DNA of 64,000 nucleotides from Escherichia coli (GTDB taxonomy: Bacteria > Pseudomonadota > Gammaproteobacteria > Enterobacterales > Enterobacteriaceae), in assembly GCF_041886205.1 (NCBI RefSeq), contig NZ_CP169029.1. One strand, 5' to 3'. The position numbers were made by a program, and so were the translations under genes. The notes under the pieces were generated by a model. It was not told the origin of the DNA. It did no database searches and saw only the letters and a list, made by a program, of their open reading frames with translations. Below are positions 13,379 through 64,000 of the stretch, one piece after another; the first letter of the stretch is position 1, and every line of letters starts with the position of its first letter.

Positions 13379-13480
<102 letters not shown>

Positions 13481-16950: not shown

Positions 16951-16973
16951 TACGGATCTTTTCTTTCGCCCAA

Positions 16974-20139: not shown

Positions 20140-20148
20140 TGTGGATAA
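20140..20148 (-). promoter_or_regulatory. DnaA box (TTATCCACA) in the polA upstream region; second near-match CTATCCACA at 20281..20289
   Basis: exact 9-mer consensus on the minus strand 124 bp upstream of the polA start. Confidence 0.5.
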
Positions 20149-21312: not shown

Positions 21313-21318
21313 GTTTTA

Positions 21319-21348
21319 CTCGCCTCTGAATGAGCAGAGGCGAGTGAG
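21319..21348. terminator. bidirectional hairpin between convergent yihG and yihF (CTCGCCTCTG-aatgag-CAGAGGCGAG)
   Basis: 10-bp perfect inverted repeat in the 40-bp convergent spacer. Confidence 0.5.
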
Positions 21349-21352
21349 TATT

Positions 21353-22783: not shown

Positions 22784-22937
22784 ATAAATATTCCCTGATA
22801 AAACAGCAAAACTTTGAATATCCACTTATGCTGAAATAATGTCCAGCGGCAGGATGCATTATCAGAATGTATTTATATTTATTAAATAATAAAAAAAGCC
22901 CGTGAATATTCACGGGCTTTATGTAATTTACATTGAA

Positions 22938-23564: not shown

Positions 23565-23580
23565 GATCTACTCTCTCCGA

Positions 23581-24567
23581 TTAATACATAGGTGTTAATT
23601 GCAAAGGGGGTTCTTGTAGAACTTTTGCCTGTTCTATAAAAGTCGCCGTCTGTCGCAGCCAGTAATCTTCCCCGGTTAACCACGGGAAATTTTTCGGGAA
23701 CGCGGGATCAGCCCAACGCCGCATTAGCCAGGCAAGATAATAAACCAAACGCATGGCGCGTAAAGGTTCAATCAGTCCGATTTCAGCGGTGTCGAACTCG
23801 CTAAACTCTTCATAAGCTTCAATAATAGTTTCCAGTTGCATCCGCTGCTCGGCTTTATCGCCATTGAGCAACATCCACAAATCCTGAATAGCTGGACCAT
23901 TACGTGCATCATCCAGATCAACAAACATTGGACCATCGCGCCAGAGAATATTCCCGGCGTGGCAGTCTCCATGTAGCCGCAGAACGGTGAAATCTTCCCG
24001 CCAGTGTGCTGTAACGGCGGCGATCAGCTCATCTGTCGCTTTCAGGAATGCCGCTTTCAACCCGGAAGGTATCAGTGTAGCGTCCTCAAACAGCTTGCGT
24101 GGCTCAATGAGATATTCATTCAGACCGATGGTCGGGCGATGGATAAAAAGCTGTTTGCGCCCCGTCTGGTGCATACGCCCTAAATAACGCCCAACCGCTT
24201 CCATCTGATCGATATTATCAGCTTCGAACTGGCGACCACCGACGCTTGGAAAAACAGCGAAATAAAATCCCTGATGATTCAATAAAGTCTGACCGTTAAA
24301 GGCCACAGGTGCTGCGACCGGAACTTCATCATTTACCAGCTGCAACGCAAATTGATGTTCTTCGAGGATTTGATCGGCTGTCCAACGTTCAGGGCGATAA
24401 AATTTGACGACAAAACGTCGACGATCTTCGTCCTGAAATTGATAGACACGGTTTTCATAGCTGTTAAGCGGGGTAAGACCGGAATCCACCCGGATCCCTT
24501 GCTCAAACAGAGCGTCCATGATGGTATCCGGGTGTAGTGTCTGGAAAGTAAAAGCGCTGTTGTTCAT
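23581..24567 (-). CDS. srkA: stress-response Ser/Thr protein kinase SrkA (YihE)
   Basis: 328-aa ORF; dsbA lies 16 bp downstream. Confidence 0.9.
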   Translation of the reverse strand: MNNSAFTFQTLHPDTIMDALFEQGIRVDSGLTPLNSYENRVYQFQDEDRRRFVVKFYRPERWTADQILEEHQFALQLVNDEVPVAAPVAFNGQTLLNHQGFYFAVFPSVGGRQFEADNIDQMEAVGRYLGRMHQTGRKQLFIHRPTIGLNEYLIEPRKLFEDATLIPSGLKAAFLKATDELIAAVTAHWREDFTVLRLHGDCHAGNILWRDGPMFVDLDDARNGPAIQDLWMLLNGDKAEQRMQLETIIEAYEEFSEFDTAEIGLIEPLRAMRLVYYLAWLMRRWADPAFPKNFPWLTGEDYWLRQTATFIEQAKVLQEPPLQLTPMY

Positions 24568-24643
24568 CCCATCATCCGGAAAACATTACGAATGATGAAG
24601 GATATCATTTCACGATGATTTTGGTGGCGCCGCTTACAAGCTT

Positions 24644-24913
24644 TTACTCTTTAATTACGCCGCGAGCGCGTAACAGCGCCGTTTTGAAGTCTTCTTCATA
24701 ATCTTTCTGCAAACCCGGGATCACCGCATCTTTCGCGGAATCACGCATTTTCAGGTGATAGATCAGAATGTCATCCGTCAAATCCGCCAGTTCGCCGTCA
24801 AAACCTGACTCTTTCGCCAGTTTCTGCAAAAATTGCAACAGGTTAAGGTCTGGCTCTTTTTGCCAGGCTGGCTGGAGGAGTTCAATAACTTCATTCAGAC
24901 GTTTACATTTCAT
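24644..24913 (-). CDS. yihD: DUF1040 protein YihD
   Basis: 89-aa product from MKCKRLNEV; track ORF has a 10-codon N-terminal extension. Confidence 0.8.
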
Positions 24914-24982
24914 AGTGATGCTCCTTACTCTTGAGACAGACACGTTAGCAGGGTCAATCCCACAATAAAAGAGGCGATATCG

Positions 24983-25567
24983 GTGAATCTGATGACGACG
25001 ATAACAGGCGTTGTGCTGGCAGGCGGTAAAGCCAGACGAATGGGCGGCGTAGATAAAGGATTGCTGGACTTAAATGGCAAACCGCTGTGGCAACATGTCG
25101 CTGACGCGCTTATGACGCAGCTCTCTCACGTCGTGGTTAATGCTAATCGTCATCAGGAAATCTATCAGGCAAGCGGTCTGAAAGTGATTGAAGATTCACT
25201 GGCGGATTACCCAGGCCCTCTGGCAGGAATGCTTTCAGTAATGCAGCAGGAAGCTGGTGAGTGGTTTTTGTTTTGCCCGTGCGATACGCCTTACATTCCC
25301 CCTGATTTAGCAGCCAGGCTTAATCATCAGCGCAAAGATGCGCCTGTCGTGTGGGTCCATGACGGTGAACGCGATCACCCGACTATTGCTCTGGTAAACC
25401 GCGCTATTGAGCCTTTATTACTGGAATATCTGCAAGCAGGAGAACGCCGGGTAATGGTATTTATGCGTCTGGCTGGCGGTCATGCGGTTGATTTCAGCGA
25501 TCATAAAGATGCATTTGTTAACGTGAATACGCCAGAGGAGCTTGCCCGATGGCAGGAAAAACGATGA
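24983..25567 (+). CDS. mobA: molybdenum cofactor guanylyltransferase
   Basis: 194-aa ORF with [11 protein letters not shown] motif. Confidence 0.93.
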
Positions 25568-26076
25568 TACCGTTACTCGCCTTTGCCGCGTGGAGTGGTA
25601 CCGGAAAAACTACGCTTTTGAAAAAACTGATCCCGGCATTATGCGCCAGAGGGATCCGTCCAGGGCTGATTAAGCATACGCACCATGATATGGATGTTGA
25701 TAAGCCAGGCAAAGATAGCTATGAGCTGCGCAAGGCTGGCGCGGCACAAACCATCGTTGCCAGCCAGCAACGATGGGCCTTGATGACGGAAACACCAGAC
25801 GAAGAAGAGCTGGATCTACAGTTTCTCGCAAGTCGAATGGATACCTCAAAGCTGGATTTGATTCTGGTCGAAGGGTTTAAGCATGAAGAGATCGCAAAGA
25901 TTGTGCTGTTTCGCGATGGAGCCGGACATCGACCTGAAGAATTAGTGATAGACAGGCATGTTATTGCTGTAGCCAGTGATGTGCCGCTTAATCTTGATGT
26001 CGCATTACTGGATATTAATGATGTTGAGGGGCTGGCTGATTTTGTGGTGGAGTGGATGCAAAAGCAGAACGGATAA
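25549..26076 (+). CDS. mobB: molybdopterin-guanine dinucleotide biosynthesis adapter MobB
   Basis: 175-aa ORF overlapping mobA by 19 nt; P-loop SGTGKTT; alternative start MIPLL at 25564. Confidence 0.9.
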
Positions 26077-26085
26077 GCAAGAGTA

Positions 26086-26121
26086 GGCTGGATAAGACGC
26101 GCCAGCGTCGCATCCGGCATT
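26086..26121. repeat. REP element between mobB and the rrnA terminator
   Basis: GGCTGGATAAGACGCGCCAGCGTCGCATCCGGC palindromic unit. Confidence 0.7.
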
Positions 26122-26135
26122 TTTTTCTGCGCCAA

Positions 26136-26168
26136 TGCAAAAAGGCCATCCGTCAGGATGGCCTTCTG
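26136..26168 (-). terminator. rrnA operon terminator (hairpin AAGGCCATCCTGACGGATGGCCTT + U-run)
   Basis: inverted repeat immediately after the 5S 3' end on the minus strand. Confidence 0.75.
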
Positions 26169-26177
26169 CTTAATTTG

Positions 26178-26297
26178 ATGCCTGGCAGTTCCCTACTCTC
26201 GCATGGGGAGACCCCACACTACCATCGGCGCTACGGCGTTTCACTTCTGAGTTCGGCATGGGGTCAGGTGGGACCACCGCGCTACGGCCGCCAGGCA
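26178..26297 (-). rRNA. rrfA: 5S ribosomal RNA
   Basis: 120-nt match to E. coli 5S rRNA (reverse complement ATGCCTGGCAGTTCCCTACTCTCGCATGGGG...). Confidence 0.97.
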
Positions 26298-26389
26298 AAT
26301 TCTTTTTTATCAGACCGCTTCTGCGTTCTGATTTAATCTGTATCAGGCTGAAAATCTTCTCTCATCCGCCAAAACACCTTCGGCGTTGT

Positions 26390-29292
<2,903 letters not shown>

Positions 29293-29475
29293 TCACAACC
29301 CGAAGATGTTTCTTTCGATTCATCATCGTGTTGCGAAAATTTGAGAGACTCACGAACAACTTTCGTTGTTCAGTGTTTCAATTTTCAGCTTGATCCAGAT
29401 TTTTAAAGAGCAAAACTTCGCAGTGAACCTTTGCAGGTACACTCTGAAGTATTTTTTATTTAATCACTACAGAGA

Positions 29476-29551
29476 TGGTGGAGCTATGCGGGATCGAACC
29501 GCAGACCTCCTGCGTGCAAAGCAGGCGCTCTCCCAGCTGAGCTATAGCCCC
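29476..29551 (-). tRNA. alaT: tRNA-Ala (UGC)
   Basis: 76-nt match to GGGGCTATAGCTCAGCTGGGAGAGCGCCTGCTTTGCACGCAGGAGGTCTGCGGTTCGATCCCGCATAGCTCCACCA. Confidence 0.97.
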
Positions 29552-29593
29552 ATAACATGTAGTTAAAACCTCTTCAAATTTGCGGTGCAAATT

Positions 29594-29670
<77 letters not shown>

Positions 29671-29738
29671 GTAGAGGTTTTACTGCTCATTTTCATCAGA
29701 CAATCTGTGTGAGCACTGCAAAGTACGCTTCTTTAAGG

Positions 29739-31280
<1,542 letters not shown>

Positions 31281-31405
31281 AAAAGTTTGATGCTCAAAGA
31301 ATTAAACTTCGTAATGAATTACGTGTTCACTCTTGAGACTTGGTATTCATTTTTCGTCTTGCGACGTTAAGAATCCGTATCTTCGAGTGCCCACACAGAT
31401 TGTCT

Positions 31406-31425
31406 GATAAATTGTTAAAGAGCAG
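31406..31425 (-). promoter_or_regulatory. rrn leader boxA antitermination element (TGCTCTTTAACAATTTATCA)
   Basis: exact boxA-containing leader motif on the minus strand between P2 and 16S. Confidence 0.8.
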
Positions 31426-31462
31426 TGCCGCTTCGCTTTTTCTCAGCGGCGCGGGGTGTGCA

Positions 31463-31490
31463 TAATACGCTTTCCCGCTACAGAGTCAAG
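31463..31490 (-). promoter_or_regulatory. rrnA P2 promoter (-35 TTGACT, -10 TATTAT)
   Basis: minus-strand TTGACTCTGTAGCGGGAAAGCGTATTATGC. Confidence 0.75.
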
Positions 31491-31580
31491 CATTTATTTT
31501 TGCTTTCTCTGCCGGAATTCTCAGGAGAACCCCGCTGACCCGGCGGCGTGTTTGCCGTTGTTCCGTGTCAGTGGTGGCGC

Positions 31581-31608
31581 ATTATAGGGAGTTATTCCGG
31601 CCTGACAA
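31581..31608 (-). promoter_or_regulatory. rrnA P1 promoter (-35 TTGTCA, -10 TATAAT)
   Basis: minus-strand TTGTCAGGCCGGAATAACTCCCTATAATGCGCCACCACTG; upstream UP/Fis region runs into the hemG 3' end. Confidence 0.8.
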
Positions 31609-31657
31609 GAGGAAATTTAAAATAATTTTCCGACCGCGCATTTTTTATTCTTTATGC

Positions 31658-32203
31658 TTATTTCAGCGTCGGTTTGTCGGTTAAATGGGCGATTTCTCGG
31701 GCGAAATTCGCCACCTGCTCCCAATCGGTATAGACAACTTCTTTGCGCGTATCCGTTTCACCGCCTGACATCTTCATAATTAGCTTGATCATAAAACGGT
31801 CGTACCAGCGATAACGTGGGTAACGCAGCGCCCCGGCAATGACCGCGCAGCGATCGGGACGCCATTGCGAGTTCATCAGAAACTTCCGCGCGTAGCTGTT
31901 GGTCTGTGGAGTGCGCTTCTCCGGTTTACGCGCCACCAGGTTTACGGAGTAAAAGGCGCTCGGCATCGAATTCAGCCGCGTCGCATGCTTTTTGACAAAT
32001 TCCTGGAACGCAGAGTGGTAGTGACCATAGCGAATAGAAGCACCAATGACCACACGGTCGTAGTTTTCCCACTGTGGTTCTTCAATGCGGTGCACATTGG
32101 CGACATCCGCCTGGATCCCCAGTTCTTTCAGTTCCGAAGCCAAGTAGGAGGCAATCTCGCGCGTTTGTCCGTCCCTTGTTGAGAAAAGAATTAATGTTTT
32201 CAC
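31658..32203 (-). CDS. hemG: protoporphyrinogen IX dehydrogenase (menaquinone-dependent, flavodoxin-like)
   Basis: 181-aa ORF recognised as HemG; directly upstream of rrnA. Confidence 0.95.
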
Positions 32204-32214
32204 GTATTACTCCA

Positions 32215-33666
32215 TCATTCACGCCAGAAAGTCGGGGTAAAGAGCACCAGCAATGTAAAGACCTCGAGACGACCAAACAGCATGTTGGCAATCAGGATCC
32301 ATTTAGCCACCGGGTTCATACTGGTAAAGTTATCAGCAACCACGCCAAGCCCCGGCCCCAGGTTATTCAATGTCGCAACAACCGAGGCAAAAGCAGAAAA
32401 GTCATCCACGCCCGTGGCGATAATCGCCAGCATACTGACAATAAACACCAATGCATAGGCGGAGAAAAATCCCCAAACGGCTTCGAGGATACGTTCCGGC
32501 AGTGCGCGATTCCCCAGCTTAATGCTATAGACGGCGTTCGGATGCACCAGTCGTTTCAGCTCACGGTTCCCCTGCTTAAACAGCAGCAGGATGCGGATCA
32601 CTTTCAGGCCACCGCCCGTTGACCCGGCACAACCGCCGATAAAAGCTGAACATAAAAGCAGTACCGGCAAAAAGAGCGGCCAGCGGGCAATGCTGTCAGT
32701 CGTAAACCCGGCGGTTGTCGCCATCGACACCACCTGGAAAAACGCCTGGTTAATTGTCATCAGCGCCGAACTGTAGACATTGTGAAACCACAGTACGAGG
32801 GTACAAATAACCACCAGCGTAAACTGTACGCCGATAAACATGCGAAATTCCGGATCGCGCCAATAAACCTTCAGACTACGCCCACTTAACAGTGAAAAGT
32901 GCAGACCGTAGTTACAGCCGGAGATCAGCAGGAAGATAGCAATGATAGTGTTAATAGTCGGGCTGTCGAAATAACCGATACTGGCATCATGTGTCGAGAA
33001 GCCGCCAATAGCGATAGTCGCAAAGCTATGGCCGATGGCATCAAAGGCATCCATTCCGGCAAACCACAACGCCAGCGCACAGGCGACGGTCAGCAAGACA
33101 TAAATCAACCACAGGGTTTTCGCCGTTTCCGCAATTCGCGGGCGCATTTTGTTATCTTTCAGCGGGCCGGGCATTTCTGCGCGATAGAGCTGCATCCCAC
33201 CCACGCCGAGGATAGGCAGTATCGCAACCGCTAACACGATGATCCCCATCCCGCCAAACCATTGCAGCATCTGGCGATAAAAGAGGATGGCGTGAGGGAG
33301 CGAATCCAGCCCCACCAGCGTAGTGGCCCCGGTGGTGGTCAGGCCAGAGAAAGATTCAAAAAACGCATCGGTAATCGTGAGGTTCGGGCTTTCCGAGAAG
33401 ATAAAAGGGAGCGCACCGACACTACCCAGCACGGTCCAGAACAGCACCACTATCAGAAACCCCTCACGGGATTTCAGTTCGCCCTTCTCTTTACGGTTCG
33501 GCCACCACAGCATAGAACCAATGGCGAGGGCGACAAAAAAGGTCTGGGTAAAAGCGCGGCCCGCTCCATCCCGGTAGATGAGTGCTACCAGCCCAGGGAT
33601 AATCATGGTCCCTGAAAATAAGATGACCAGTAGTCCAACGATTCGGGTAATGGCGCGAAAATGCAT
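32215..33666 (-). CDS. trkH: Trk potassium uptake protein TrkH
   Basis: 483-aa polytopic membrane ORF, recognised TrkH. Confidence 0.95.
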   Translation of the reverse strand: MHFRAITRIVGLLVILFSGTMIIPGLVALIYRDGAGRAFTQTFFVALAIGSMLWWPNRKEKGELKSREGFLIVVLFWTVLGSVGALPFIFSESPNLTITDAFFESFSGLTTTGATTLVGLDSLPHAILFYRQMLQWFGGMGIIVLAVAILPILGVGGMQLYRAEMPGPLKDNKMRPRIAETAKTLWLIYVLLTVACALALWFAGMDAFDAIGHSFATIAIGGFSTHDASIGYFDSPTINTIIAIFLLISGCNYGLHFSLLSGRSLKVYWRDPEFRMFIGVQFTLVVICTLVLWFHNVYSSALMTINQAFFQVVSMATTAGFTTDSIARWPLFLPVLLLCSAFIGGCAGSTGGGLKVIRILLLFKQGNRELKRLVHPNAVYSIKLGNRALPERILEAVWGFFSAYALVFIVSMLAIIATGVDDFSAFASVVATLNNLGPGLGVVADNFTSMNPVAKWILIANMLFGRLEVFTLLVLFTPTFWRE

Positions 33667-33704
33667 CTCTGCCGCTTCCTTAGTTCTGCAAAACGAAGTG
33701 GGGA

Positions 33705-34322
33705 TTATTCTTCAATCGCTAACAATTGCAATGAACCACGGCTAAAATCCGCCAGCTTTGCGGAAAATTCAGCCACTTTCGCCGCCGGAAGCGCCACCCG
33801 CAGCAGAACGAATGCCTGATAATCACTGTTGATAATTTTGCCGTCACACTGCCCCAGCAACGCTTCAATGCCGGTTAACTGACTATATTCACATTGCAAA
33901 GTATATTCGGTTAATGGCGTCTTGCGTTGGGTCGTTAGCTGGCGCAGCGCCTGATTCACGCCGCCGCCATACGCTTTCACTAACCCACCGGTGCCAAGCA
34001 ATATGCCACCGTAGTAGCGCACTACCACAGCGGTAATTTCCCCGACGCCGCTGCCCATTAGCTGGGCGAGCATCGGTTTACCTGCCGTTCCTGCCGGCTC
34101 CCCGTCGTCAGAGAAACCCAGCTGTTGAGAATCATCCGGCGCACCCGCCACCCACGCCACGCAATGGTGGCGGGCATCGGGGTGTTCTGCCCGCACCGAT
34201 TCAACAAACGCTTTCGCCGCCTCAACGCCATCGGTATGCGCCAACAGTGTTATGAAGCGGCTCTTTTTGATCTCTTCAACGACCGTGACCGGTGCCGCAG
34301 GAATTAACCAGCTTTCCATCAC
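33705..34322 (-). CDS. yigZ: IMPACT-family protein YigZ
   Basis: 205-aa ORF; start overlaps the pepQ stop by 4 nt. Confidence 0.85.
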
Positions 34323-35650
34323 GCCAGTTTCAGATCCCGGGTCATGTTTTCCACGTTGTTTTCGTGGATCACCACGTTGTCTTCGATACGAATGCCGCCG
34401 AACGGTTTCAGTGCTTCAATTTTCTGCCAGTTGAAGTGCTTGCTGAACTGCCCTTCACGCCACGGTGCCAGTAGCGATTCAATGAAGTAGATACCCGGTT
34501 CGATGGTTAACACCATGCCCGGCTGGAGAATACGGGTGCAGCGCAGGTACGGATATTTTGCCGGTGCCGCGAGGTGTGTACCGCTATCATCCTGCATAAA
34601 ACCGGCTACGTCATGCACCTGCAGGCCCAGCGGATGACCGATACCATGCGGCATAAACGGTCCGGTGAGATTGTTTTCGACCATCGCTTCTTCACTCATA
34701 TCGGTGATGATTTGATGTTTACGCAGCAATTTGGCGATACGCTGATGGAACTGGATGTGGTAATCCACATAGCTGACGCCAGCTTTCATGGTGGCGATCA
34801 GCGCAAGTTGTTCATCATTTACGTCTTTCACCAGCTGTGCGTAGTCGTTGTCGCTTTTTGCCGACCAGGTACGGGTCAGGTCAGCCGCATAGCCGTTATA
34901 TTCGGTCCCGGCATCCAGCAGGAAGCTGCGCATCTCTTCCGGCGCCTGATGATCCAGTTTGGTGTAATGCAGCACCGCAGCGTGTTCGTTGAGCGCCACA
35001 ATGTTGCTGTAAGGCACGTCGGTATCACGATGACCGGTCGCGGTCAGATAGGCAATGTTGATATCGAACTCGCTCATGCCAGAACGGAACGCTTCTTCTG
35101 CCGCGCGATGACCGTTGACCGCCATTTTCTGCGCTTCACGCATACAGGCCAGTTCGTACTCGGTTTTGAAGGAGCGATAGTAATGCAGGTAGTCGATCAC
35201 CCCTTTCGGGTTGATGTTGCTGGCCTCAATACCCAGTTGCAGCGCACGTTCCGGCACCGGACCGATATAACCGATATTGCCGCGCGCAGCAGGCAGCAGG
35301 CTACCAATGCCATCGGCTTTCGGCAGCGCGATCACTTCCACATCTTCAGTCCAGAAGGAGGTCGGCAGCGGTTCGACGTTGTGCCAGTAATCAACCGGCA
35401 GATAGAACCACAGTTTCGGCTTATTCACGCCATCCACCAGCAACCAGCAGTTTGGTACCTGAGTTACCGGCACCCACGCTTTGAATTGCGGGTTCACTTT
35501 AAACGGATAGGGATGATCGTCGAGAAAAACGTTGAACAGTTCGCCGGAGTGAATAAGTAACGCATCCAGCTTGAAGCGCGTCAGCGCATCGCGAGTCCGT
35601 TCCTGCAATGTAGCTATATGATTTTTATAGAGCGAGGCCAGTGATTCCAT
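34319..35650 (-). CDS. pepQ: Xaa-Pro dipeptidase (prolidase)
   Basis: 443-aa ORF recognised as PepQ. Confidence 0.95.
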
Positions 35651-35797
35651 TTTTTACCCTTCTGTTTTTTTGACCTTAAGTCTCCGCATCTTAGCACATC
35701 GTTCATCCAGAGCGTGATTTCTGCCGAGCGTGATCAGATCGGCATTTCTTTAATCTTTTATTTGCATATTTTTAACACAAAATACACACTTCGATGC

Positions 35798-35814
35798 ATC
35801 TGGTACGACCAGAT
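35798..35814 (+). promoter_or_regulatory. FadR operator of the fadBA promoter (ATCTGGTACGACCAGAT)
   Basis: 17-bp palindrome 26 bp upstream of the fadB ATG. Confidence 0.8.
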
Positions 35815-35839
35815 CACCTTGCGGATTCAGGAGACTGAC

Positions 35840-38029
35840 ATGCTTTACAAAGGCGACACCCTGTACCTTGACTGGCTGGAAGATGGCATTGCCGAACTGG
35901 TATTTGATGCCCCAGGTTCAGTTAATAAACTCGACACTGCGACCGTCGCCAGCCTTGGCGAGGCCATCGGCGTGCTGGAACAGCAATCAGATCTAAAAGG
36001 GCTGCTACTGCGTTCGAACAAAGCAGCCTTTATCGTCGGTGCTGATATCACCGAATTTTTGTCCCTGTTCCTCGTTCCTGAAGAACAGTTAAGTCAGTGG
36101 CTGCACTTTGCCAATAGCGTGTTTAATCGCCTGGAAGATCTGCCGGTGCCGACCATTGCTGCCGTCAACAGCTATGCGCTGGGCGGTGGCTGCGAATGCG
36201 TGCTGGCGACCGATTATCGTCTGGCGACGCCGGATCTGCGCATCGGTCTGCCGGAAACCAAACTGGGCATCATGCCGGGCTTTGGCGGTTCTGTACGTAT
36301 GCCACGTATGCTGGGCGCTGACAGTGCGCTGGAAATCATTGCCGCCGGTAAAGATGTCGGCGCGGATCAGGCGCTGAAAATCGGTCTGGTGGATGGGGTA
36401 GTCAAAGCAGAAAAACTGGTTGAAGGGGCGATGGCGATTTTACGCCAGGCCATTAACGGCGACCTCGACTGGAAAGCAAAACGTCAGCCGAAGCTGGAAC
36501 CGCTAAAACTGAGCAAGATTGAAGCCACCATGAGCTTCACCATCGCTAAAGGGATGGTCGCACAAACGGCGGGGAAACATTATCCGGCCCCCATCACCGC
36601 AGTAAAAACCATTGAAGCTGCGGCCCGTTTTGGTCGTGAAGAAGCCTTAAATCTGGAAAACAAAAGTTTTGTCCCGCTGGCACATACCAACGAAGCCCGC
36701 GCACTGGTCGGCATTTTCCTTAATGATCAATATGTAAAAGGCAAAGCGAAGAAACTCACCAAAGACGTTGAAACACCGAAACAGGCCGCTGTACTGGGCG
36801 CAGGCATTATGGGCGGCGGTATCGCTTACCAGTCTGCGTGGAAAGGCGTGCCGGTTGTCATGAAAGATATCAACGACAAGTCGTTAGCCCTCGGCATGAC
36901 TGAAGCCGCGAAACTACTGAACAAGCAGCTTGAGCGCGGCAAGATCGATGGTCTGAAACTGGCTGGCGTGATCTCCACGATCCACCCAACGCTCGACTAC
37001 GCCGGATTTGACCGCGTGGATGTTGTGGTAGAAGCGGTTGTCGAAAACCCGAAAGTGAAAAAAGCCGTACTGGCAGAAACCGAGCAGAAAGTACGCCCGG
37101 ATACCGTGCTGGCGTCTAACACTTCAACCATTCCTATCAGCGAACTGGCCAACGCGCTGGAACGTCCGGAAAACTTCTGCGGGATGCACTTCTTTAACCC
37201 GGTCCACCGAATGCCGTTGGTGGAAATTATTCGCGGCGAGAAAAGCTCCGACGAAACCATCGCGAAAGTCGTCGCCTGGGCGAGCAAGATGGGCAAAACG
37301 CCGATTGTGGTTAACGACTGCCCCGGCTTCTTCGTCAACCGCGTGCTGTTCCCGTATTTCGCCGGTTTCAGCCAGTTGCTGCGCGACGGCGCGGATTTCC
37401 GCAAGATCGACAAAGTGATGGAAAAACAGTTTGGCTGGCCGATGGGTCCGGCATATCTGCTGGATGTCGTGGGCATTGATACCGCGCATCACGCTCAGGC
37501 TGTCATGGCAGCAGGCTTCCCGCAGCGGATGCAGAAAGATTATCGCGATGCCATCGACGCGCTGTTTGATGCCAACCGCTTTGGTCAGAAGAACGGCCTC
37601 GGTTTCTGGCATTATAAAGAAGACAGCAAAGGTAAGCCGAAGAAAGAAGAAGACGCCGCTGTTGACGACCTGCTGGCAGAAGTGAGCCAGCCGAAGCGCG
37701 ATTTCAGCGAAGAAGAGATTATCGCCCGCATGATGATCCCGATGGTCAACGAAGTGGTCCGCTGTCTGGAAGAGGGCATTATCGCCACTCCGGCGGAAGC
37801 GGATATGGCGCTGGTCTACGGCCTGGGCTTCCCTCCGTTCCACGGCGGCGCGTTCCGCTGGCTGGACACCCTCGGTAGCGCAAAATACCTCGATATGGCA
37901 CAGCAATATCAGCACCTCGGCCCGCTGTATGAAGTGCCGGAAGGTCTGCGTAATAAAGCGCGTCATAACGAACCGTACTATCCTCCGGTTGAGCCAGCCC
38001 GTCCGGTTGGCGACCTGAAAACGGCTTAA
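35840..38029 (+). CDS. fadB: fatty-acid oxidation complex alpha subunit (enoyl-CoA hydratase / 3-hydroxyacyl-CoA dehydrogenase)
   Basis: 729-aa product from [16 protein letters not shown]; track ORF begins 42 codons upstream. Confidence 0.97.
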
Positions 38030-39202
<1,173 letters not shown>

Positions 39203-39208
39203 GCACTT

Positions 39209-39392
<184 letters not shown>

Positions 39393-39452
39393 TGGTTTGC
39401 CAGATACGTCATAGATCTAAATGCCACTGAATAACAGTTTAGTTGCCGTTCT

Positions 39453-39477
39453 TCCCGCCTGTCAGGGGCGGGTTTTT
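39453..39477 (+). terminator. rho-independent terminator (CCCGCCTGTCAGGGGCGGG + TTTTTT), probably ending the fadBA transcript
   Basis: GC-rich hairpin followed by six T on the plus strand. Confidence 0.6.
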
Positions 39478-39483
39478 TATATC

Positions 39484-40185
39484 TCAGATAAATGCAAACG
39501 CATCGCCAAACAGGCGATCTTCCCGCGCATTACGCTCACTGCAAAACAGGTCACGAGCAATTTTCGCCATCTCAAAACGTCCGGCAATATAGATATCATG
39601 CTCTGCCAGCGTACCGTGATCCTGCAATACCGCCGTTAACACGGTGCCAGTACGCCCACGCCAGCCCGCTTCCGGTTGTTCAACCACCGGCACCACTTGC
39701 AGACCAGGGTGCTTTAACGAAAGCGCCTCAAGCTCGCAGAGATCATACAGATGCTGCTCTTCACGCCCGCCCCAGTAAATGGTGATATCACGGTTTGGGT
39801 TACGCGCCAACGCTGTCAGCAAAATCGAGCGGGCATAAGAGAACCCGGTGCCGCCCGCAATCAAAATCATCGGACGCTCTTCATCATCGCGCAGCCACGC
39901 TTCTCCGTGGGGAATATCGACCACGATTTGATGATCTTTGAGGATGCGGTCCATGACTGCTTTCGCGTAAAGGTTGATTTCAGAAGCGCCAATATGCAGC
40001 TCGATAAACCCTTTTTCATCCGGCGTCGAGGCCATTGAGAACGGACGTTTGTCGCGCTCATCCATCACTACCATCAAATACTGACCAGCACGAAAAGAAA
40101 AGGCCGCGTCTGGCACGATGCGGACACGATATACGGTATCCGTGATAGCTTCTACCGAGGTCACTTTACAGCTTAAGGTTGTCAT
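39484..40185 (-). CDS. fre: NAD(P)H-flavin reductase
   Basis: 233-aa product from [16 protein letters not shown]; track ORF has an 11-codon extension. Confidence 0.93.
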
Positions 40186-40230
40186 GCGCTTTCTCTGTCG
40201 GATCGATAAATAGGGCAAAACAAACGCGCA

Positions 40231-41724
40231 TCAGGCGCTTTTACCGTTGTTAAAAATAGCCAGTTCATCCCAGATGGCGTCAATATGCGCGACAACATCT
40301 GGATCTTTTTTGATGGGACGCCCCCATTCACGCTGGGTTTCCCCCGGCCATTTATTCGTGGCATCCAGCCCCATTTTTGAACCCAGCCCGGAGACAGGCG
40401 AGGCAAAATCCAGATAATCAATAGGCGTATTTTCTACCAGAACAGTATCCCGCGCCGGGTCCATACGGGTGGTAATCGCCCAAATCACATCGTTCCAGTC
40501 GCGTGCGTTGACGTCATCATCGCAAACGATCACAAATTTAGTGTACATAAACTGGCGTAAGAACGACCAGACGCCCATCATGACGCGCTTCGCGTGTCCG
40601 GCGTACTGTTTTTTGATCGTCACTACCGCCAGACGATAAGAACAGCCTTCCGGCGGCAGGTAGAAATCGACAATTTCCGGGAACTGTTTTTGCAGAATCG
40701 GCACGAACACTTCGTTCAACGCCACGCCCAGCACTGCCGGTTCATCTGGTGGACGGCCGGTATAAGTGGAGTGATAAATCGCATCTTCACGCTGGGTAAT
40801 ATGCGTCACGGTAAATACCGGGAAACTGTCGACTTCGTTATAGTAACCGGTGTGGTCGCCATACGGCCCTTCCGGCGCAGTTTCGCCTTGTTCGATATAC
40901 CCTTCCAGCACAATCTCCGCACTGGCGGGCACTTCAAGGTCATTGGAAATACACTTCACCACTTCGGTCTTGGTGCCACGTAGCAATCCGGCAAACGCAT
41001 ACTCTGAAAGCGTATCCGGAACGGGAGTGACTGCACCGAGAATCGTGGCGGGATCGGCACCCAGCGCCACAGAAACCGGGAAACGTTCGCCCGGATGCGC
41101 CGCACACCACTCCTGATAATCCAGCGCGCCGCCGCGATGCGACAGCCAGCGCATAATCAGTTTGTTTTTACCAATCAGCTGCTGGCGATAAATGCCCAGA
41201 TTCTGCCGCTCTTTATGCGGGCCGCGCGTCACTGTCAGCCCCCAGGTAATCAGCGGCGCGGCATCTTCCGGCCAGCAGGTCATAATGGGAATGCGATTGA
41301 GATCGACGTCATCGCCAGAGACGATTTTTTGTTGGCAGGGCGCACCACGCAGCCGCTTTGTCGGCATGTTCAATACTTGCTTAAACTGCGGCAGTTTATC
41401 AAACAGGTCGCGGAAACCTTTTGGCGGCTCCGGCTCTTTCAGAAACGCCAATAATTTACCAACTTCACGCAGCGCCGAAACATCTTCCTGCCCCATGCCC
41501 ATCGCCACGCGCTTTGGCGTACCGAACAGGTTGCACAGCACCGGCATTGAGTAGCCTTTAGGGTTTTCGAACAACAGCGCAGGCCCACCGGCACGCAAAG
41601 TGCGGTCAGCAATTTCAGTGATTTCCAGATGCGGATCCACCGGGAGCGTGATACGTTTTAGCTCACCCTGCTGTTCAAGCAGCGTCAGGAAGTCGCGTAA
41701 ATCGTTATATTTCATGGCGTCCAT
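40231..41724 (-). CDS. ubiD: 3-octaprenyl-4-hydroxybenzoate decarboxylase
   Basis: 497-aa ORF recognised as UbiD. Confidence 0.95.
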
Positions 41725-41845
41725 TGTAGCCTCTTAATCTGCGCCCATTATACGGCGTTCATCTTTGTGATGCTGTAAATTTGTTAAATTAGCGTGAACT
41801 CTGACGGTATAACGCAAACCGGGGAATATAATTAACTTAGCGTAA

Positions 41846-43158
<1,313 letters not shown>

Positions 43159-43199
43159 CCTGTACTCCATATGACAACCGCCCTGACGGGCGGTTGAAT

Positions 43200-43976
43200 T
43201 TATTCTTCAGTTTTTTCGCTTTCTGCTTCAGCGTCGTTTTCCTCTTCCCGATTTCGCCCTTTACCAACGTAAAAGCGTGAGAAGAAGACACCGATTTCAA
43301 ACAGACAGTACATCGGGATCGCCAACAGCGTTTGCGAGAAGACATCCGGCGGCGTCAGCAACATCCCGACAACGAATGCACCAACCAGCACATACGGGCG
43401 TTTTTTGCGTAAGTCTTCTGGCGAGGTAATCCCCATCCAGCACAGCAGCACAATTGCCACAGGCACTTCAAAGGAGACACCAAACGCCATAAACAACGCC
43501 ATAACAAAGCTTAAATAGCTGGCGATGTCGGTGGATACCTGCACCCCTTCCGGCGCGGTATTGGCAAGGAAGCCAAATGCCAGCGGAAAGACCACAAAGT
43601 AGGCGAACGCCATGCCGATATAAAACAGCAGAGAGCTGGAAACCAGCAGCGGCACCACCAGGCGACGTTCATGCTTATACAGCGCTGGGGCGATAAATGC
43701 CCACACCTGATAGAGAATCACCGGCGCTGACAGAATCAGCGACACCATAAAGGTCAGCTTGATCGGCGTAAAGAACGGCGAGGCCACGTCGGTGGCGATC
43801 ATCGTTGAACCTTGCGGCAACTGCTTGATCAATGGCGCGGATACCAGGTGATAGATGTCATTGGCGAAATAGACCAGACACAGGAATATCACGATCACCG
43901 CGATAATGCAGTTCAGCAGACGCTTACGCAGCTCAATCAGATGCGTGATAAGCGGTTGAGTATCTTCTACAGACAT
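43200..43976 (-). CDS. tatC: twin-arginine translocase subunit TatC
   Basis: 258-aa six-helix membrane ORF. Confidence 0.95.
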
Positions 43977-43978
43977 GT

Positions 43979-44494
43979 TTACGGTTTATCACTCGACGAA
44001 GGGGAAGGTGCAGCGGTTTTCGGTTCAGCGTCCGCAGCAGGTTTTACCACCGGCTCTGGCGTGGTTTCTGGCTTCTGTTCCGGCGAACTGGCCTGCGTTT
44101 GTGCAGCGGCAGGCGTTACGCCTTCATGCGCAGCTTCATTGTCTTTCACCACCGGGTTATGGATGGTGTGCGCTTCATCGCTCGCCTTTTCAGGATCGTT
44201 TGCAACGTAGGAACGCTTCATCGACTCTGCGGCCTGGCGTAATTCATCCATCGACGCTTTCAGTTCGGGCGTCAGATTAGTGAGGCTCGCCTTTTCAACC
44301 TTTTTCAGACTGTCCTGAAACTCCTGGAGTTTTAACTCCTGGGTCAGTTCGTTCTGCACCGTTGTCGCCAGTGAACGCAACGCGCGAATCCAGCCCGCTA
44401 CCGTTTTTACCGCCACAGGCAGTCGTTGCGGCCCCAGAACGACTAGGCCGATGATGAACACCAATAGCAGTTCGCTAAAACCGATATCAAACAC
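43979..44494 (-). CDS. tatB: twin-arginine translocase subunit TatB
   Basis: 171-aa [29 protein letters not shown].. Confidence 0.95.
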
Positions 44495-44497
44495 GGA

Positions 44498-44767
44498 TTA
44501 CACCTGCTCTTTATCGTGGCGCTTCGCGTCTTCTGTTTTAGCCTGTTCCTGATTCGTATCCGCCTGCTTATCGGCGATAGTTTTCGCAGTAAAATCAGCA
44601 TCCTGACTGGTTTTATCCTGCTTTGGTTCATCATCGCTCATTGCTTTTTTAAAGCCTTTGATCGACGCACCAAGATCGGAACCGATGGAGCCGAGCTTTT
44701 TGGTGCCAAAAAGCAGTACAACGATGACGGCAATAATCAATAACTGCCAAATACTGATACCACCCAT
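44498..44767 (-). CDS. tatA: twin-arginine translocase subunit TatA
   Basis: 89-aa product from [25 protein letters not shown]. Confidence 0.93.
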
Positions 44768-44845
44768 ACATGTTCCTCTGTGGTAGATGATGATTAAACA
44801 AGGCCGCATTATACGTTACACGGCCCGCCTTGAGCGATGAAAAAA

Positions 44846-47088
<2,243 letters not shown>

Positions 47089-51397: not shown

Positions 51398-53659
51398 TTA
51401 CCCCCGACGCAAGTTCTGCGCCGCCTGCACCATGTTCGCCAGTGCCGCGCGGGTTTCTGGCCAGCCGCGCGTTTTCAGGCCACAGTCCGGGTTGACCCAC
51501 AGGCGCTCTGCCGGAATGCGTTTTGCCGCTTTCTTCAGCAGGGCTTTAATCCATTCCACGCTCGGTACGTTTGGCGAGTGAATGTCATAGACGCCTGGAC
51601 CGATTTCATTCGGATAATCAAACTCTTCGAACGACTCCAGCAACTCCATGTCAGAACGCGAAGTTTCGATGGTAATCACATCCGCATCCAGCGCCGCAAT
51701 GGAATCCATGATGTCGTTGAACTCGCAATAACACATGTGAGTGTGGATTTGTGTGTCATCTTTCGCCACGGCGGCGTTGATACGGAAGGCCTCTACGCCC
51801 CACTGGAGATAGGCGTCCCAGTCGCTACGACGCAGCGGTAAACCTTCGCGCAGCGCCGGTTCGTCAATCTGGATGATACCAATCCCTGCCGCTTCCAGAT
51901 CGGCCACCTCATCACGCAGCGCCAGCGCAATCTGTTTGGCGATGGTTTCACGGCTGACATCTTCACGCGGGAACGACCAGCAGAGTATGGTCACCGGCCC
52001 CGTCAGCATCCCTTTCACCGGTTTGTCGGTCAGCGATTGCGCATACTTCGCCCACTCCACGGTAATCGGTGCCGGGCGGCTAATGTCACCAATGACAATC
52101 GGTGGCTTCACGCAGCGGGAACCGTAGCTCTGTACCCAACCGTTTTGCGTAAAGACAAATCCGTCGAGGTGCTCGCCAAAGTATTCCACCATGTCATTAC
52201 GCTCGGCCTCGCCATGTACCAGCACATCCAGTCCCAAACGTTCCTGCTCAACAATGGCCTGCTTGATATGTTCCGCAATGCCCGTGCGGTAGTTGTTGGC
52301 GTCGAGATTACCCTTTTTGAAATCCAGACGCAGGGTACGAATTTCCGTGGTTTGCGGGAAAGAACCAATCGTGGTGGTCGGCCACGCTGGCAGTTTAAAA
52401 CGCGCACGCTGGGCTTCGGCACGCACTTCATAGACATTCGCACGCTGGCTGTCCTGGGCGGTGATCGCCGCCAGACGCTTTTCTACCGCCGGATTATGTA
52501 CACGAGTAGAGTGACGACGCGCCTGAATTGGGGCGCTCCACTCTGCCAGAGCTGCCGTGTCACCACTGTTCAGCGCATCGCGCAGCAGTGCCAGTTCATG
52601 GCATTTTTGTAGGGCGAAGGCAAACCAGCTTTTCACTTCTGCATCAAGACGCGTTTCCACGCTCAGGTCGATGGGGCTGTGCAGCAACGAGCAGGAAGAT
52701 GCCACCCACAAATCACGTTTGCCGACAATGTCCTTAATTTGCGCATATTTCTCGGTAAGATCGGCGCGCCAGACGTTACGACCATTGATCAGACCCGCAG
52801 ACAGCAACCAGTCAGAAGGTAGGCGCTTGTGCAGTTCAGCAACGTCATCTTTACCATGTACAAGGTCCACATGCAGCCCCTGAACAGGCAGCGCAGTAAT
52901 CGTGTCGAGGTTTGGCGTTACGCCTTCAAAATAGGTGGTCAGCAGCAGTTTCACCTGGCCCTGGAGCGCGTCGTAAGCGGGTTTGTATGCGTCCAGCCAC
53001 GCCTGCGGTAGTTCCAGTACCAGCGCGGGTTCGTCGATCTGTACCCACTCAATGCCGCGTTTTGCCAGTTCTGCCAGCACTTGCTGATAAACCGGCAGAA
53101 TGTCGTTCAGCAGGCTCAGGCGGTCAAATTGTTCACCTTTCACTTTCCCCAGCCACAGCCAGGTAACCGGCCCCAGCAGCACAGGTTTCACCTTGTGGCC
53201 CAGCGCCAGCGCCTCGTCCACTTCGTCCAGCAGCTGCGTCCAGGTCAGTTTGAACTGTTGGCCTTTAACGAACTCCGGCACCATGTAGTGATAGTTGGTG
53301 TTAAACCATTTGGTCATTTCCGCTGCCGCCGCAGGTTCGCCAGTTGGCGCACGTCCACGACCAATACGGAACAGGGTGTCGATATCTACCGAACCATCTT
53401 TGTTCTGATGACGTGGCGGAACATTACCCAGCAGCAGACTGGTGGTCAGTACATGATCATACCAGGCAAAATCGCCCACCGGCAGCAGGTCGATACCCGC
53501 TTGCTTTTGTTGATCCCAGTGACGAGCACGCAATTCACGCCCTACCGCCAGCAGTTCTTCACGCGTGGAGTTCCCCGCCCAATAACTCTCTTGCGCTTTT
53601 TTCAGCTCGCGACGCAGGCCAACGCGAGGGAAACCGAGGGTGTGATTAAGAATTGTCAT
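51398..53659 (-). CDS. metE: cobalamin-independent methionine synthase
   Basis: 753-aa ORF recognised as MetE. Confidence 0.97.
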
Positions 53660-53764
53660 TATATGCCCCTTATGGAATTTTTAGTATTTAGCCGTCCAGA
53701 TGTTTACACATCCATAATTGGCGGTTACTGTATATTCCTCAAGCGCAAATTATTCATGCCGAAG

Positions 53765-53777
53765 TGAAGGACTTTCA
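53765..53777 (+). promoter_or_regulatory. MetR-type binding motif TGAAggactTTCA in the metE-metR divergent region
   Basis: TGAA-N5-TTCA dyad immediately abutting the metR ATG. Confidence 0.5.
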
Positions 53778-54730
53778 TGATCGAAGTAAAACACCTGAAA
53801 ACGCTACAAGCGTTGCGGAACTGCGGCTCTCTCGCAGCCGCTGCGGCGACGTTGCATCAGACGCAATCCGCCCTGTCTCACCAGTTTAGCGATCTGGAAC
53901 AACGCCTTGGCTTCCGGCTATTTGTGCGTAAGAGCCAGCCGCTACGCTTTACACCGCAGGGAGAAATCCTGTTGCAACTGGCAAACCAGGTGCTGCCGCA
54001 AATCAGCCAGGCACTGCAAGCCTGCAATGAACCGCAGCAGACGCGTCTGCGCATTGCCATTGAGTGCCATAGCTGTATTCAGTGGCTGACGCCCGCGTTA
54101 GAAAATTTCCATAAGAACTGGCCGCAGGTAGAGATGGATTTTAAATCGGGCGTGACGTTTGACCCGCAGCCTGCGTTGCAACAGGGCGAGCTGGATCTGG
54201 TGATGACCTCCGATATCCTGCCGCGCAGTGGCCTGCATTATTCGCCGATGTTCGATTATGAAGTACGCCTGGTGTTAGCGCCTGACCATCCACTGGCGGC
54301 AAAAACGCGTATTACACCGGAAGATCTCGCCAGCGAGACGCTATTAATTTATCCGGTGCAGCGTAGTCGACTGGATGTCTGGCGGCATTTTCTTCAGCCG
54401 GCAGGCGTCAGCCCGTCACTGAAAAGCGTCGATAACACCTTATTGTTGATTCAGATGGTTGCCGCGCGGATGGGTATTGCCGCGCTACCGCATTGGGTAG
54501 TAGAGAGTTTTGAGCGCCAGGGTCTGGTGGTCACCAAAACCCTGGGCGAAGGCTTGTGGAGCCGACTGTACGCCGCCGTGCGCGATGGCGAGCAGCGTCA
54601 GCCGATTACAGAAGCATTTATTCGCTCAGCGCGCAATCACGCCTGCGATCATCTGCCGTTTGTGAAGAGCGCGGAGCGACCCACTTACGATGCACCCACA
54701 GTGAGGCCAGGATCACCAGCGCGCCTGTAA
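53777..54730 (+). CDS. metR: LysR-family transcriptional activator MetR
   Basis: 317-aa ORF with N-terminal HTH. Confidence 0.95.
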
Positions 54731-55517: not shown

Positions 55518-55608
55518 ACTGGAAAACTCTTTGATTAACGAGTATCCATTGTAGCGAAGTATCAGGTTGACAACTGTTTAATGTTTGCTCAATCGTGTGC
55601 GTTTTTAC

Positions 55609-55971
55609 TCATCGTCCAACGTTACCCGCTGCAACGAAAAGTAGTTGATTAATAATGGATTCACGCGCGCTCTCCACGCTCAGATTCCAGTACTTGGTGT
55701 CGAGAGCCAGTTTCATAAAAGGCGCGTGCCAGTCTTGTTCTCTTTTTTCAAAAACCACTTCAGCGACTTTATAGCCCGTCCAGCTACGATACAAATGCAA
55801 AACGTTATTCTCAAAATAGATAAACCATTTGTATTCCATCGCTGGAGGAATAAACCCCATTTCCAGATTACGCATTTGCGCTTCATCTAACGTCAAATTA
55901 AGCTCAACCCTCTGCCAGTCAACGGTAAATGCTTTGAGGTTATGCCAGCTTTGCTTCGTCGCTTTTGTCAT
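55609..55971 (-). CDS. hypothetical protein (120 aa from MTKATKQSWHNLKAF..), not recognised
   Basis: only long ORF in the 518-bp yigL-yigM spacer; Trp-rich (6 W), AT-richer than neighbours, weak SD (AGGGAA); unclear whether it is an annotated gene. Confidence 0.35.
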   Translation of the reverse strand: MTKATKQSWHNLKAFTVDWQRVELNLTLDEAQMRNLEMGFIPPAMEYKWFIYFENNVLHLYRSWTGYKVAEVVFEKREQDWHAPFMKLALDTKYWNLSVESARESIINQLLFVAAGNVGR

Positions 55972-56035
55972 GCGTATTCCCTGCCTGGTTTTTAAGTGCT
56001 CTCCCGCAATCAACGTAATGCGGGAGAGGCTGGCA

Positions 56036-56836
56036 TTAACTGAGATAGAGTTTACGCAGATAATGCGGTACCGCGTCGTCGGCATTAGTACCAATCACTT
56101 CCAGCTCTGGATGCAGATCTTTCAGCCGTTGATGCGCGCTGCCCATAATGCAGCCTTTCCCCGCCATCGACAGCATTTCGGCGTCGTTCATCCCGTCACC
56201 AAAGGCAATACAATCCTTCAGGCTGTAGCCCAGTTTCTTCGCCACCGCTTCCAGCGCATGGCCTTTCGACACGCCGCCCGCCATCACTTCCAGACAGGTT
56301 AAGGTAGAGAAACTGACGTTGACGCGATCGCCCCAGCGAGCGTTAATCGCCTGCTCCAGCGGCAGCAGTTGTTCATGGGAATCGCAGGTGAAGAACACTT
56401 TGCTGACGCCTTCCGGCTCCAGTAATCCAGGCTCATACAGCGCATATTTGAACACCGCTTCTTTAAAAAAGCGCATCTCTTCCGGGCGATGGCGATTCAT
56501 AAACCATTCGTCGTCGCGATAAACGTTAGTAATGATGTCCGGATTGTCGTTGACCACACCAAACAGATCGCTGGCAATGTCGCGATCCAGGTTATGAGCA
56601 AAAATCAGATTACCATCCAGATCGTGAACGCGCGCGCCATTGGAGGTAATCATGTAAGACTTGATCTCCAGATTATCGCGAATTTGCCCCACATCGACGT
56701 GATGGCGACCAGTCGCAAACACAAAGTTGATACCGCGCGCGGTAAGCAGCTTCAGAGTTTCTTTGGCGTAAGGAGATAACGTATGGTCGGGAGAAAGTAA
56801 CGTGCCATCTAAATCAGACGCAACAACCTGGTACAT
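56036..56836 (-). CDS. yigL: HAD-superfamily (Cof-type) sugar/pyridoxal phosphate phosphatase
   Basis: 266-aa product from MYQVVASDLDGTLL (HAD motif I DxDGT); track ORF is extended 42 codons upstream into pldB. Confidence 0.88.
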   Translation of the reverse strand: MYQVVASDLDGTLLSPDHTLSPYAKETLKLLTARGINFVFATGRHHVDVGQIRDNLEIKSYMITSNGARVHDLDGNLIFAHNLDRDIASDLFGVVNDNPDIITNVYRDDEWFMNRHRPEEMRFFKEAVFKYALYEPGLLEPEGVSKVFFTCDSHEQLLPLEQAINARWGDRVNVSFSTLTCLEVMAGGVSKGHALEAVAKKLGYSLKDCIAFGDGMNDAEMLSMAGKGCIMGSAHQRLKDLHPELEVIGTNADDAVPHYLRKLYLS

Positions 56837-62857: not shown

Positions 62858-63748
62858 ATGGATGCAAAACAAACGCGGCAGGGCGTATTACTCGCTCTTG
62901 CCGCTTATTTTATTTGGGGTATTGCGCCAGCGTACTTCAAGCTAATTTACTACGTGCCCGCCGATGAGATCCTGACGCATCGCGTGATCTGGTCGTTTTT
63001 CTTTATGGTGGTGCTGATGAGTATTTGCCGCCAGTGGTCCTATTTAAAAACGCTGATTCAGACGCCACAGAAAATTTTTATGCTGGCAGTCTCTGCCGTA
63101 CTGATTGGTGGCAACTGGCTACTGTTTATCTGGGCGGTGAACAATCACCATATGCTGGAAGCGAGCCTTGGTTACTTTATTAACCCGCTGGTGAACATTG
63201 TGCTGGGGATGATTTTCCTCGGCGAGCGATTCCGCCGGATGCAATGGCTGGCGGTGATTCTGGCGATATGTGGCGTGCTGGTTCAGTTGTGGACTTTTGG
63301 TTCACTGCCGATCATCGCGCTGGGGCTGGCATTTAGTTTTGCCTTCTACGGCCTGGTACGCAAGAAGATTGCCGTTGAAGCGCAAACCGGCATGTTAATC
63401 GAAACCATGTGGTTGCTGCCCGTGGCGGCGATTTACCTGTTTGCTATTGCCGACAGCTCAACCAGCCATATGGGACAAAACCCGATGTCGCTGAATTTAC
63501 TGCTGATCGCCGCCGGTATTGTCACTACCGTACCGCTGTTGTGTTTTACCGCCGCTGCCACACGCCTGCGTCTCTCAACGTTAGGCTTTTTCCAGTATAT
63601 TGGCCCGACGCTGATGTTCCTGTTGGCTGTGACGTTTTATGGTGAAAAACCGGGTGCCGATAAGATGGTGACTTTCACCTTTATTTGGGTGGCGCTGGCA
63701 ATTTTTGTGATGGATGCAATTTATACGCAGCGTAGAACGTCCAAATAA
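62858..63748 (+). CDS. rarD: DMT-superfamily transporter RarD
   Basis: 296-aa ten-helix membrane ORF. Confidence 0.93.
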   Translation: MDAKQTRQGVLLALAAYFIWGIAPAYFKLIYYVPADEILTHRVIWSFFFMVVLMSICRQWSYLKTLIQTPQKIFMLAVSAVLIGGNWLLFIWAVNNHHMLEASLGYFINPLVNIVLGMIFLGERFRRMQWLAVILAICGVLVQLWTFGSLPIIALGLAFSFAFYGLVRKKIAVEAQTGMLIETMWLLPVAAIYLFAIADSSTSHMGQNPMSLNLLLIAAGIVTTVPLLCFTAAATRLRLSTLGFFQYIGPTLMFLLAVTFYGEKPGADKMVTFTFIWVALAIFVMDAIYTQRRTSK

Positions 63749-63842: not shown

Positions 63843-64000
63843 ATGTTACGTATGTTTATCCCAACATCTAACGGTAAGATTTCAAGACGTCAGTATATAT
63901 TTTCATTTATTTTAACAAATCTGATTTGTATCCTGCTTATATCTTTTTTTTCCAATGCTGGCTCAGTATTTTTCGTTTTAATATTTACCATTCTTTTACA
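63843..64000 (+). CDS. yigG: small inner-membrane protein, 3'-truncated by window edge
   Basis: [39 protein letters not shown].. runs off the window end; position after rarD. Confidence 0.6.

Follow-up and report, generated by a model that had tools for sequence, protein, structure and literature searches.

The interval between metE and metR in the window (the whole 64-kb stretch of E. coli chromosome that was analysed) is very probably the ordinary Escherichia coli metE–metR divergent control region, in an allele without the ERIC element found in the K-12 metE leader. The control region is an already known system, and its operator sequence appears in the published K-12 table. Our analysis adds one point to it: the compactness of the interval is that of an ERIC-less majority allele, and the locus is polymorphic both within E. 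coli and across the Enterobacteriaceae. All known control elements lie within the ~90 bp adjoining metR (53690..53778); the features are collected in Table 1.

The metE start codon lies at 53659 on the minus strand and the metR start codon at 53777, leaving an intergenic region of 117 bp (53660..53776). Strain LHM10-1 is 100% identical to the window over 601 bp around this junction, and its RefSeq annotation gives identical gene boundaries. An earlier note on this DNA had stated that 117 bp separate the divergent starts, and both the ATG positions and the LHM10-1 annotation bear this out.

Table 1. Features of the metE–metR region, in window coordinates
Feature	Position	Strand	Basis
metE coding sequence (cobalamin-independent methionine synthase, 753 aa)	51398..53659	-	Open reading frame; annotated metE in matching E. 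coli genomes
Stretch from metE ATG to MetJ operator (30 bp; within the metE 5' leader, short form without ERIC)	53660..53689	-	Alignments with K-12
MetJ operator (predicted), three tandem metboxes AGCCGTCC / AGATGTTT / ACACATCC	53690..53713		Published matrix
metE -10 hexamer AATTAT (predicted)	53714..53719	-	Read from sequence; conservation 0.91
metR -10 hexamer TATATT (predicted)	53731..53736	+	Read from sequence; conservation 0.93
metE -35 hexamer TTGAGG (predicted)	53737..53742	-	Read from sequence; conservation 0.99
MetR proximal, weaker site IR2 ATGAATAATTTGCGC (putative)	53743..53757	-	Position, conservation
MetR distal, better-conserved site IR1 GTGAAGGACTTTCAT (predicted; core dyad 53765..53777)	53764..53778		Consensus, conservation, literature
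metR coding sequence (LysR-type activator, 317 aa)	53777..54730	+	Open reading frame; annotated metR in matching genomes

The predicted MetJ operator

Metboxes were located by scanning the whole window with the information-weight matrix and thresholds of PMC3228920 (Table 3; consensus AGACGTCT). An array was defined as at least two tandem, in-phase 8-bp boxes, each scoring at least one-quarter of the consensus score and together reaching at least the consensus score of 12.58 bits. The predicted operator contains three such boxes, which score 7.25 bits (AGCCGTCC), 9.34 bits (AGATGTTT) and 4.47 bits (ACACATCC), giving a total of 21.06 bits, and which match the consensus at 6/8, 6/8 and 5/8 positions, respectively. 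The array lies between metE and metR, upstream of methionine-regulon genes, and is conserved in orthologous regions. Of 300 dinucleotide shuffles of the complete 64-kb window, 2 yielded an array of this strength.

The 24-bp array is letter-for-letter the one published for K-12 metR/metE in the supplement to PMC3228920, where the entry has three boxes, 21.08 bits and distances of 63 bp to the start of metR and 149 bp to that of metE. The corresponding distances in the window are 63 bp to metR and 30 bp to metE. Text passages of PMC3228920 describe reporter and gel-shift assays of ‘the known E. coli genes’ and leave metE and metR unnamed among the operators assayed.

The earlier note had suggested that degenerate octamers in this region may be MetJ boxes, and had named a MetJ matrix scan and a comparison with the characterised K-12 operators as checks, with a lack of significant MetJ or MetR scores speaking against it. 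Since the published matrix calls a three-box operator within the quoted stretch, and the 24-mer is identical to that of K-12, the suggestion holds in substance. Its details required correction: the coordinates given (53683..53705) are wrong, and the quoted octamers (CCGTCCAG, ATGTTTAC and ACATCCAT) are located at 53692..53715, where they score -26.0, -5.0 and -7.8 bits and match the consensus at 0, 2 and 3 positions. The true metbox register is displaced from them by 2 nt to the left.

The window holds two metbox arrays only. The second is a marginal pair, AGATTTCA AGACGTCA, at 63877..63892, downstream of the 62858..63748 open reading frame, with a score of 12.86 bits relative to the threshold of 12.58 bits. 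The expectation from the same matrix is 0.74 arrays per shuffled window (300 shuffles); the pair falls within this and was rejected as a MetJ operator.

Predicted MetR sites and their conservation

The metR start is overlapped by a perfect TGAA-N5-TTCA dyad, TGAAGGACTTTCA, whose last position coincides with the first base of the ATG. It is the sole sequence of this form in the whole 64 kb, for which the expected number is 1.36; by our own arithmetic, the expectation within a given 117 bp is ~0.0025. The dyad is the core of IR1, a 15-bp site that has a single mismatch to the MetR consensus ATGAA-N5-TTCAT and that covers the metR Shine-Dalgarno sequence AAGGA together with the first two bases of the ATG. 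The consensus comes from comparative regulon reconstruction (PMC4239095) and phylogenetic footprinting (PMC5002191).

PMC5002191 describes two MetR sites relative to the E. coli metE transcription start: the distal IR1, at -63, is the better conserved, and the proximal IR2, at -41, is the weaker. For Salmonella (S. typhimurium), the same source reports that footprints and mutations place MetR on two tandem TGAAnnTnnTTCA repeats and that full activation of metE requires both, and it cites work in Salmonella on homocysteine-dependent activation of metE by MetR with footprint protection. By its account, the two-site footprinting was carried out in Salmonella, rather than directly on the E. coli metE–metR region. 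Given IR1 centred at 53771, ATGAATAATTTGCGC is the only sequence in the window that fits the position of IR2. Its centre at 53750 is 21 bp from that of IR1, and the site adjoins the predicted metE -35 hexamer. Considered as a motif, IR2 has three mismatches to the consensus and is indistinguishable from chance by score. A loose scan for the MetR 15-mer, allowing up to two mismatches, gave 34 matches in the window against 33 expected, with no enrichment, so IR2 cannot be supported by motif alone; its support comes from position and conservation.

Conservation was assessed with one genome per species. A degenerate pattern for the MetR N-terminus identified 120 loci, of which 112 had a metE start that could be placed. 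The metbox array occupies positions -87..-64 from the metR ATG in nearly every locus (~110 species), as it does in the window, and the TGAA-N5-TTCA dyad is found at -12 in almost all of the 112 species. Column conservation, calculated from 88 distinct colinear sequences, is 0.88 to 0.99 for the metboxes, 0.99 for IR1 and 0.90 for IR2, and just 0.53 for the metE-proximal leader. Tatumella has a different arrangement: its intergenic region of 205 to 212 bp contains four metboxes and lacks both the ERIC core and a perfect dyad.

The earlier note had placed the dyad exactly at 53765..53777, beside the metR ATG, and had called it MetR-type and consistent with autoregulation. Its MetR-type character is supported by its place as the core of IR1, by the single mismatch to the consensus and by its recurrence at -12 across species. 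Autoregulation fits, but the dyad is first of all part of a metE activator site.

A dyad in this place could also be conserved solely as a translation signal, through the metR Shine-Dalgarno sequence and start codon and without MetR binding. The overlap with AAGGA and ATG means that translation signals alone would preserve part of it. We regard this as very improbable, because the outer arm bases GTGAA and the spacing are likewise invariant (0.99) and the site fits a MetR consensus derived independently from many regulon members. The site also lies at the reported distance of IR1 from the metE start and 21 bp from a second, half-conserved site, a separation usual for LysR-type regulators, and the Salmonella footprints and mutations reported in PMC5002191 put MetR on two tandem TGAAnnTnnTTCA repeats here.

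An origin of both the 8-bp repeats and the dyad as chance matches in AT-rich intergenic DNA is scarcely credible. Loose motifs are common in the window, as the counts for the MetR 15-mer illustrate, and the marginal metbox pair at 63877..63892 is matched by the 0.74 arrays expected per shuffle. Against this, the strength of the operator was equalled in so few shuffles of the 64 kb, the exact dyad is unique, and the metboxes and the dyad both lie in the single 117-bp interval that should hold them and are both conserved in ~110 species. Together with the identity to the published K-12 metboxes, these observations already refute a chance origin.

Promoters and proposed mode of regulation

Hexamers for both promoters can be read from the sequence (Table 1). 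The predicted metE -10 and -35 elements are separated by 17 bp. Transferring the reported IR1 and IR2 distances (-63 and -41; PMC5002191, a secondary source) onto the K-12-identical sequence puts the probable metE transcription start at ~53707..53709. The -10 hexamer TATATT suggests a metR start at ~53743, and with a 17-bp spacing the putative metR -35 region would fall on metbox 3. PMC5002191 describes the metE and metR divergent promoters as overlapping, in agreement with these assignments. The metE leader would then be ~49 nt long here, compared with ~168 nt in K-12. A generic sigma-70 scan returned one minus-strand site directed towards metE (ATGAAA, an 18-nt spacer and AATAAT, 53778 to 53749, 9/12 matches). 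This site (53749..53778) lies over IR1 and IR2 and was rejected as the metE promoter because it disagrees with the spacing reported between MetR sites and metE start.

In the arrangement proposed here, the metboxes would span +1 to ~+19 of metE as well as the predicted metR -35 region. Because the array covers both the probable metE start and the metR -35 region, a single MetJ–SAM array would repress both genes: MetJ with S-adenosylmethionine, bound at this one operator, is expected to repress metE and metR together. MetR would bind IR1 and, with homocysteine, also the weaker IR2. At IR2 it would touch the metE -35 element, the usual place for a LysR-type activator, and could in this way activate metE. 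Both sites would lie inside the first ~35 nt of the metR transcript, with IR1 over the Shine-Dalgarno sequence and ATG, an arrangement that would fit autorepression of metR. The binding of MetJ and MetR at these sites, and its effects, are taken from the literature, while the sequence, positions, statistics, K-12 identity and conservation come from the present analysis.

The layout resembles that of other LysR-type divergent promoters (group one of PMC5002191, comprising gcvA–gcvB and metR–metE) and of the glyA–hmp MetR sites, in which a strong distal and a weak proximal site are placed about two helical turns apart. As in group one, the putative proximal site is next to the predicted -35 element of the promoter under activation, with the distal site lying partly over the regulator's own promoter or leader. 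What sets the window apart is that the distal site extends over the regulator's start codon and ribosome-binding site as well. Salmonella (S. enterica subsp. arizonae, L102) shares the dyad at -12 and the three-box array at -87..-64. Its intergenic region is of the long form (248 bp) and carries a more divergent ERIC variant, and its leader is 66.5% identical to the E. coli long allele.

Two forms of the metE leader

The intergenic region is 236 bp long in K-12-type genomes, compared with 117 bp here, and the extra 119 bp belong to the metE 5' leader. From 53687 through the metR start, the window is 100% identical to K-12 (b3829/b3828), including the metbox array 63 bp from the metR ATG, IR1 and IR2. 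All of the additional K-12 DNA is situated between the metboxes and the metE ATG, where K-12 has 149 bp and the window 30 bp. Relative to the short form, the long form contains an insert of ~115 bp, a different 16-bp segment adjoining the ATG (TTTTTCTTCCTCTAAT, ribosome-binding) and a few small changes. The metE Shine-Dalgarno sequence of the window is likely AAGGGG, the reverse complement of 53666..53671.

The K-12 insert is a dispersed repeat: across E. coli genomes, a sensitive search detected it at 39,924 positions, with a median of 8 in each genome, and alignments of the other copies cover ~589..704 of L001, a K-12-type allele. It carries a ..GAGCTTAC..AGTAAGTGAC.. core. ERIC/IRU elements were defined as imperfect palindromes of ~115 to 127 bp with this core and with several copies per genome, and the dispersed, multi-copy nature of the insert together with its core identifies it as an ERIC/IRU element within the K-12 metE 5' leader. 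The core is the target of the ERIC-PCR primers. By blastn and by a search with the primer sequences, no ERIC-like sequence is present in the 64-kb window; at most ~20 bp resemble one ERIC terminus. A literature search for ERIC at metE returned nothing relevant. The early ERIC/IRU surveys may list the metE–metR locus.

The earlier note had called the region compact. This is no special design but the ERIC-less allele of a region that measures 236 bp in K-12. The short form is present in 3325 of 5425 complete E. coli genomes (61%), including O104:H4 and APEC O1:K1:H7, and the long form in the other 2100 (39%), including K-12, BL21, O157:H7 and O145. With 61% of genomes carrying it, the compact form is the majority E. 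coli allele and is not peculiar to this strain. K-12 is thus a reference for the minority form, and coordinates from K-12 do not carry over directly to the metE leader in annotation, in the design of promoter reporters or in regulon models. The direct importance of the region is small, in that textbook methionine regulation is confirmed and the MetJ register corrected.

No Rfam family matches 53660..53776 at the gathering score, and the K-12 long allele gives only sub-threshold matches, to Ysr49 and V_AS5, over the ERIC-holding stretch. The short leader RNA is predicted to be essentially unstructured (-5.9 kcal/mol, z +1.55), with no significant difference from shuffled sequences. The K-12 leader folds at -42.5 kcal/mol (z -0.77), which is likewise non-significant relative to shuffles, and in its minimum-energy structure an arm of the ERIC element pairs with the Shine-Dalgarno sequence. 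Since this fold does not stand out from shuffles, sequestration of the K-12 Shine-Dalgarno sequence by the ERIC arm is only a lead.

The variation between metE leaders with and without an ERIC element may have functional consequences instead of being neutral. The recurrence of both haplotypes across many genera, the high conservation of the ERIC leader and the different predicted folds of the two leaders would be in keeping with a functional difference, which we nevertheless consider rather improbable. If it exists, metE mRNA would be translated or stabilised differently in strains with the short allele than in K-12, which would then be unrepresentative of most E. coli for control of the very abundant MetE enzyme. 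The locus provides a natural allele pair for asking whether a transcribed ERIC element affects a highly expressed gene.

Distribution and origin of the two forms

Among the 112 loci with a located metE start, intergenic length has a bimodal distribution across the Enterobacteriaceae, with a short class of 107 to 118 bp (52 loci) and a long class of 186 to 262 bp (60 loci). Short and long forms both occur within Escherichia, Citrobacter, Enterobacter, Kluyvera, Leclercia and Pluralibacter. Almost all long forms contain the ERIC core, in constant orientation.

The long leaders were compared using positions 589..704 of the K-12-type allele L001 together with L016, L024, L041, L056, L081 and L109. 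Against the leaders of Citrobacter youngae and Citrobacter sp. Cu233, that of the E. coli long allele shows 96.6 to 98.0% identity. For the flanking coding DNA of E. coli and Citrobacter the figure falls to 82 to 86%, and for third codon positions to 56 to 65%. The allele difference extends into the metE coding sequence. Codons 3 and 4 of metE read ATATTG in K-12, as in Citrobacter and Salmonella, and ATTCTT or ACTCTT in short Escherichia alleles; the difference between the window and K-12 is synonymous and switches with the allele. Conservation of the ERIC leader fits either strong constraint or exchange of a ~165-bp patch between genera.

The short form might have arisen by secondary deletion of an ERIC-bearing leader, leaving a ~20-bp remnant of the left terminus. 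This question concerns the origin of the allele and not the function of the operator. The window segment CTTATGGAATTTTTAGTATTTAG (53669..53691) is similar to CCTATGGATTTTGAATTTAG, the left terminus of the ERIC copy in K-12, the homology of other ERIC copies begins at exactly that CC, and the element occupies a constant place and orientation in many genera. The resemblance is AT-rich, however, and could be due to chance. In addition, the short alleles found in the various genera resemble one another in length (115 to 118 bp) and are mutually alignable, which argues against independent deletions and points to a common origin. E. albertii, E. whittamii and Escherichia sp. E1V33 are all short, and the outgroup Xenorhabdus is short as well (107 to 108 bp) without the terminus-like segment. 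The E. coli long allele, at 97 to 98% identity to that of Citrobacter and with Citrobacter/Salmonella-like metE codons 3 and 4, would fit import as a long patch. On balance we consider a deletion origin possible but somewhat unlikely, and as to the direction of the indel (insertion or deletion) the sequence evidence points both ways.

Other features of the window

A ~440-bp segment between bioP/yigM and yigL (55577..56020) contains a small hypothetical gene of ~120 aa that starts MTKATKQSWHNLKAF; the open reading frame is listed at 55609..56094 on the minus strand. The segment is found in just 8 of 5425 complete E. coli genomes. The gene product matches no Pfam family and has only 7 homologues among 5.8 billion proteins. 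This is a very rare, orphan-like accessory gene.

Rfam matches at the gathering score span 6839..46734 of the window. An rRNA operon (5S, 23S, two tRNAs and 16S) occupies 26180..31280 on the minus strand, and CsrC (15692..15945), Spot 42 (16974..17092) and Erse (46483..46734) are also recognised. Further matches in the window are to ES222, STnc370, StyR-44 and two copies of naRNA4.
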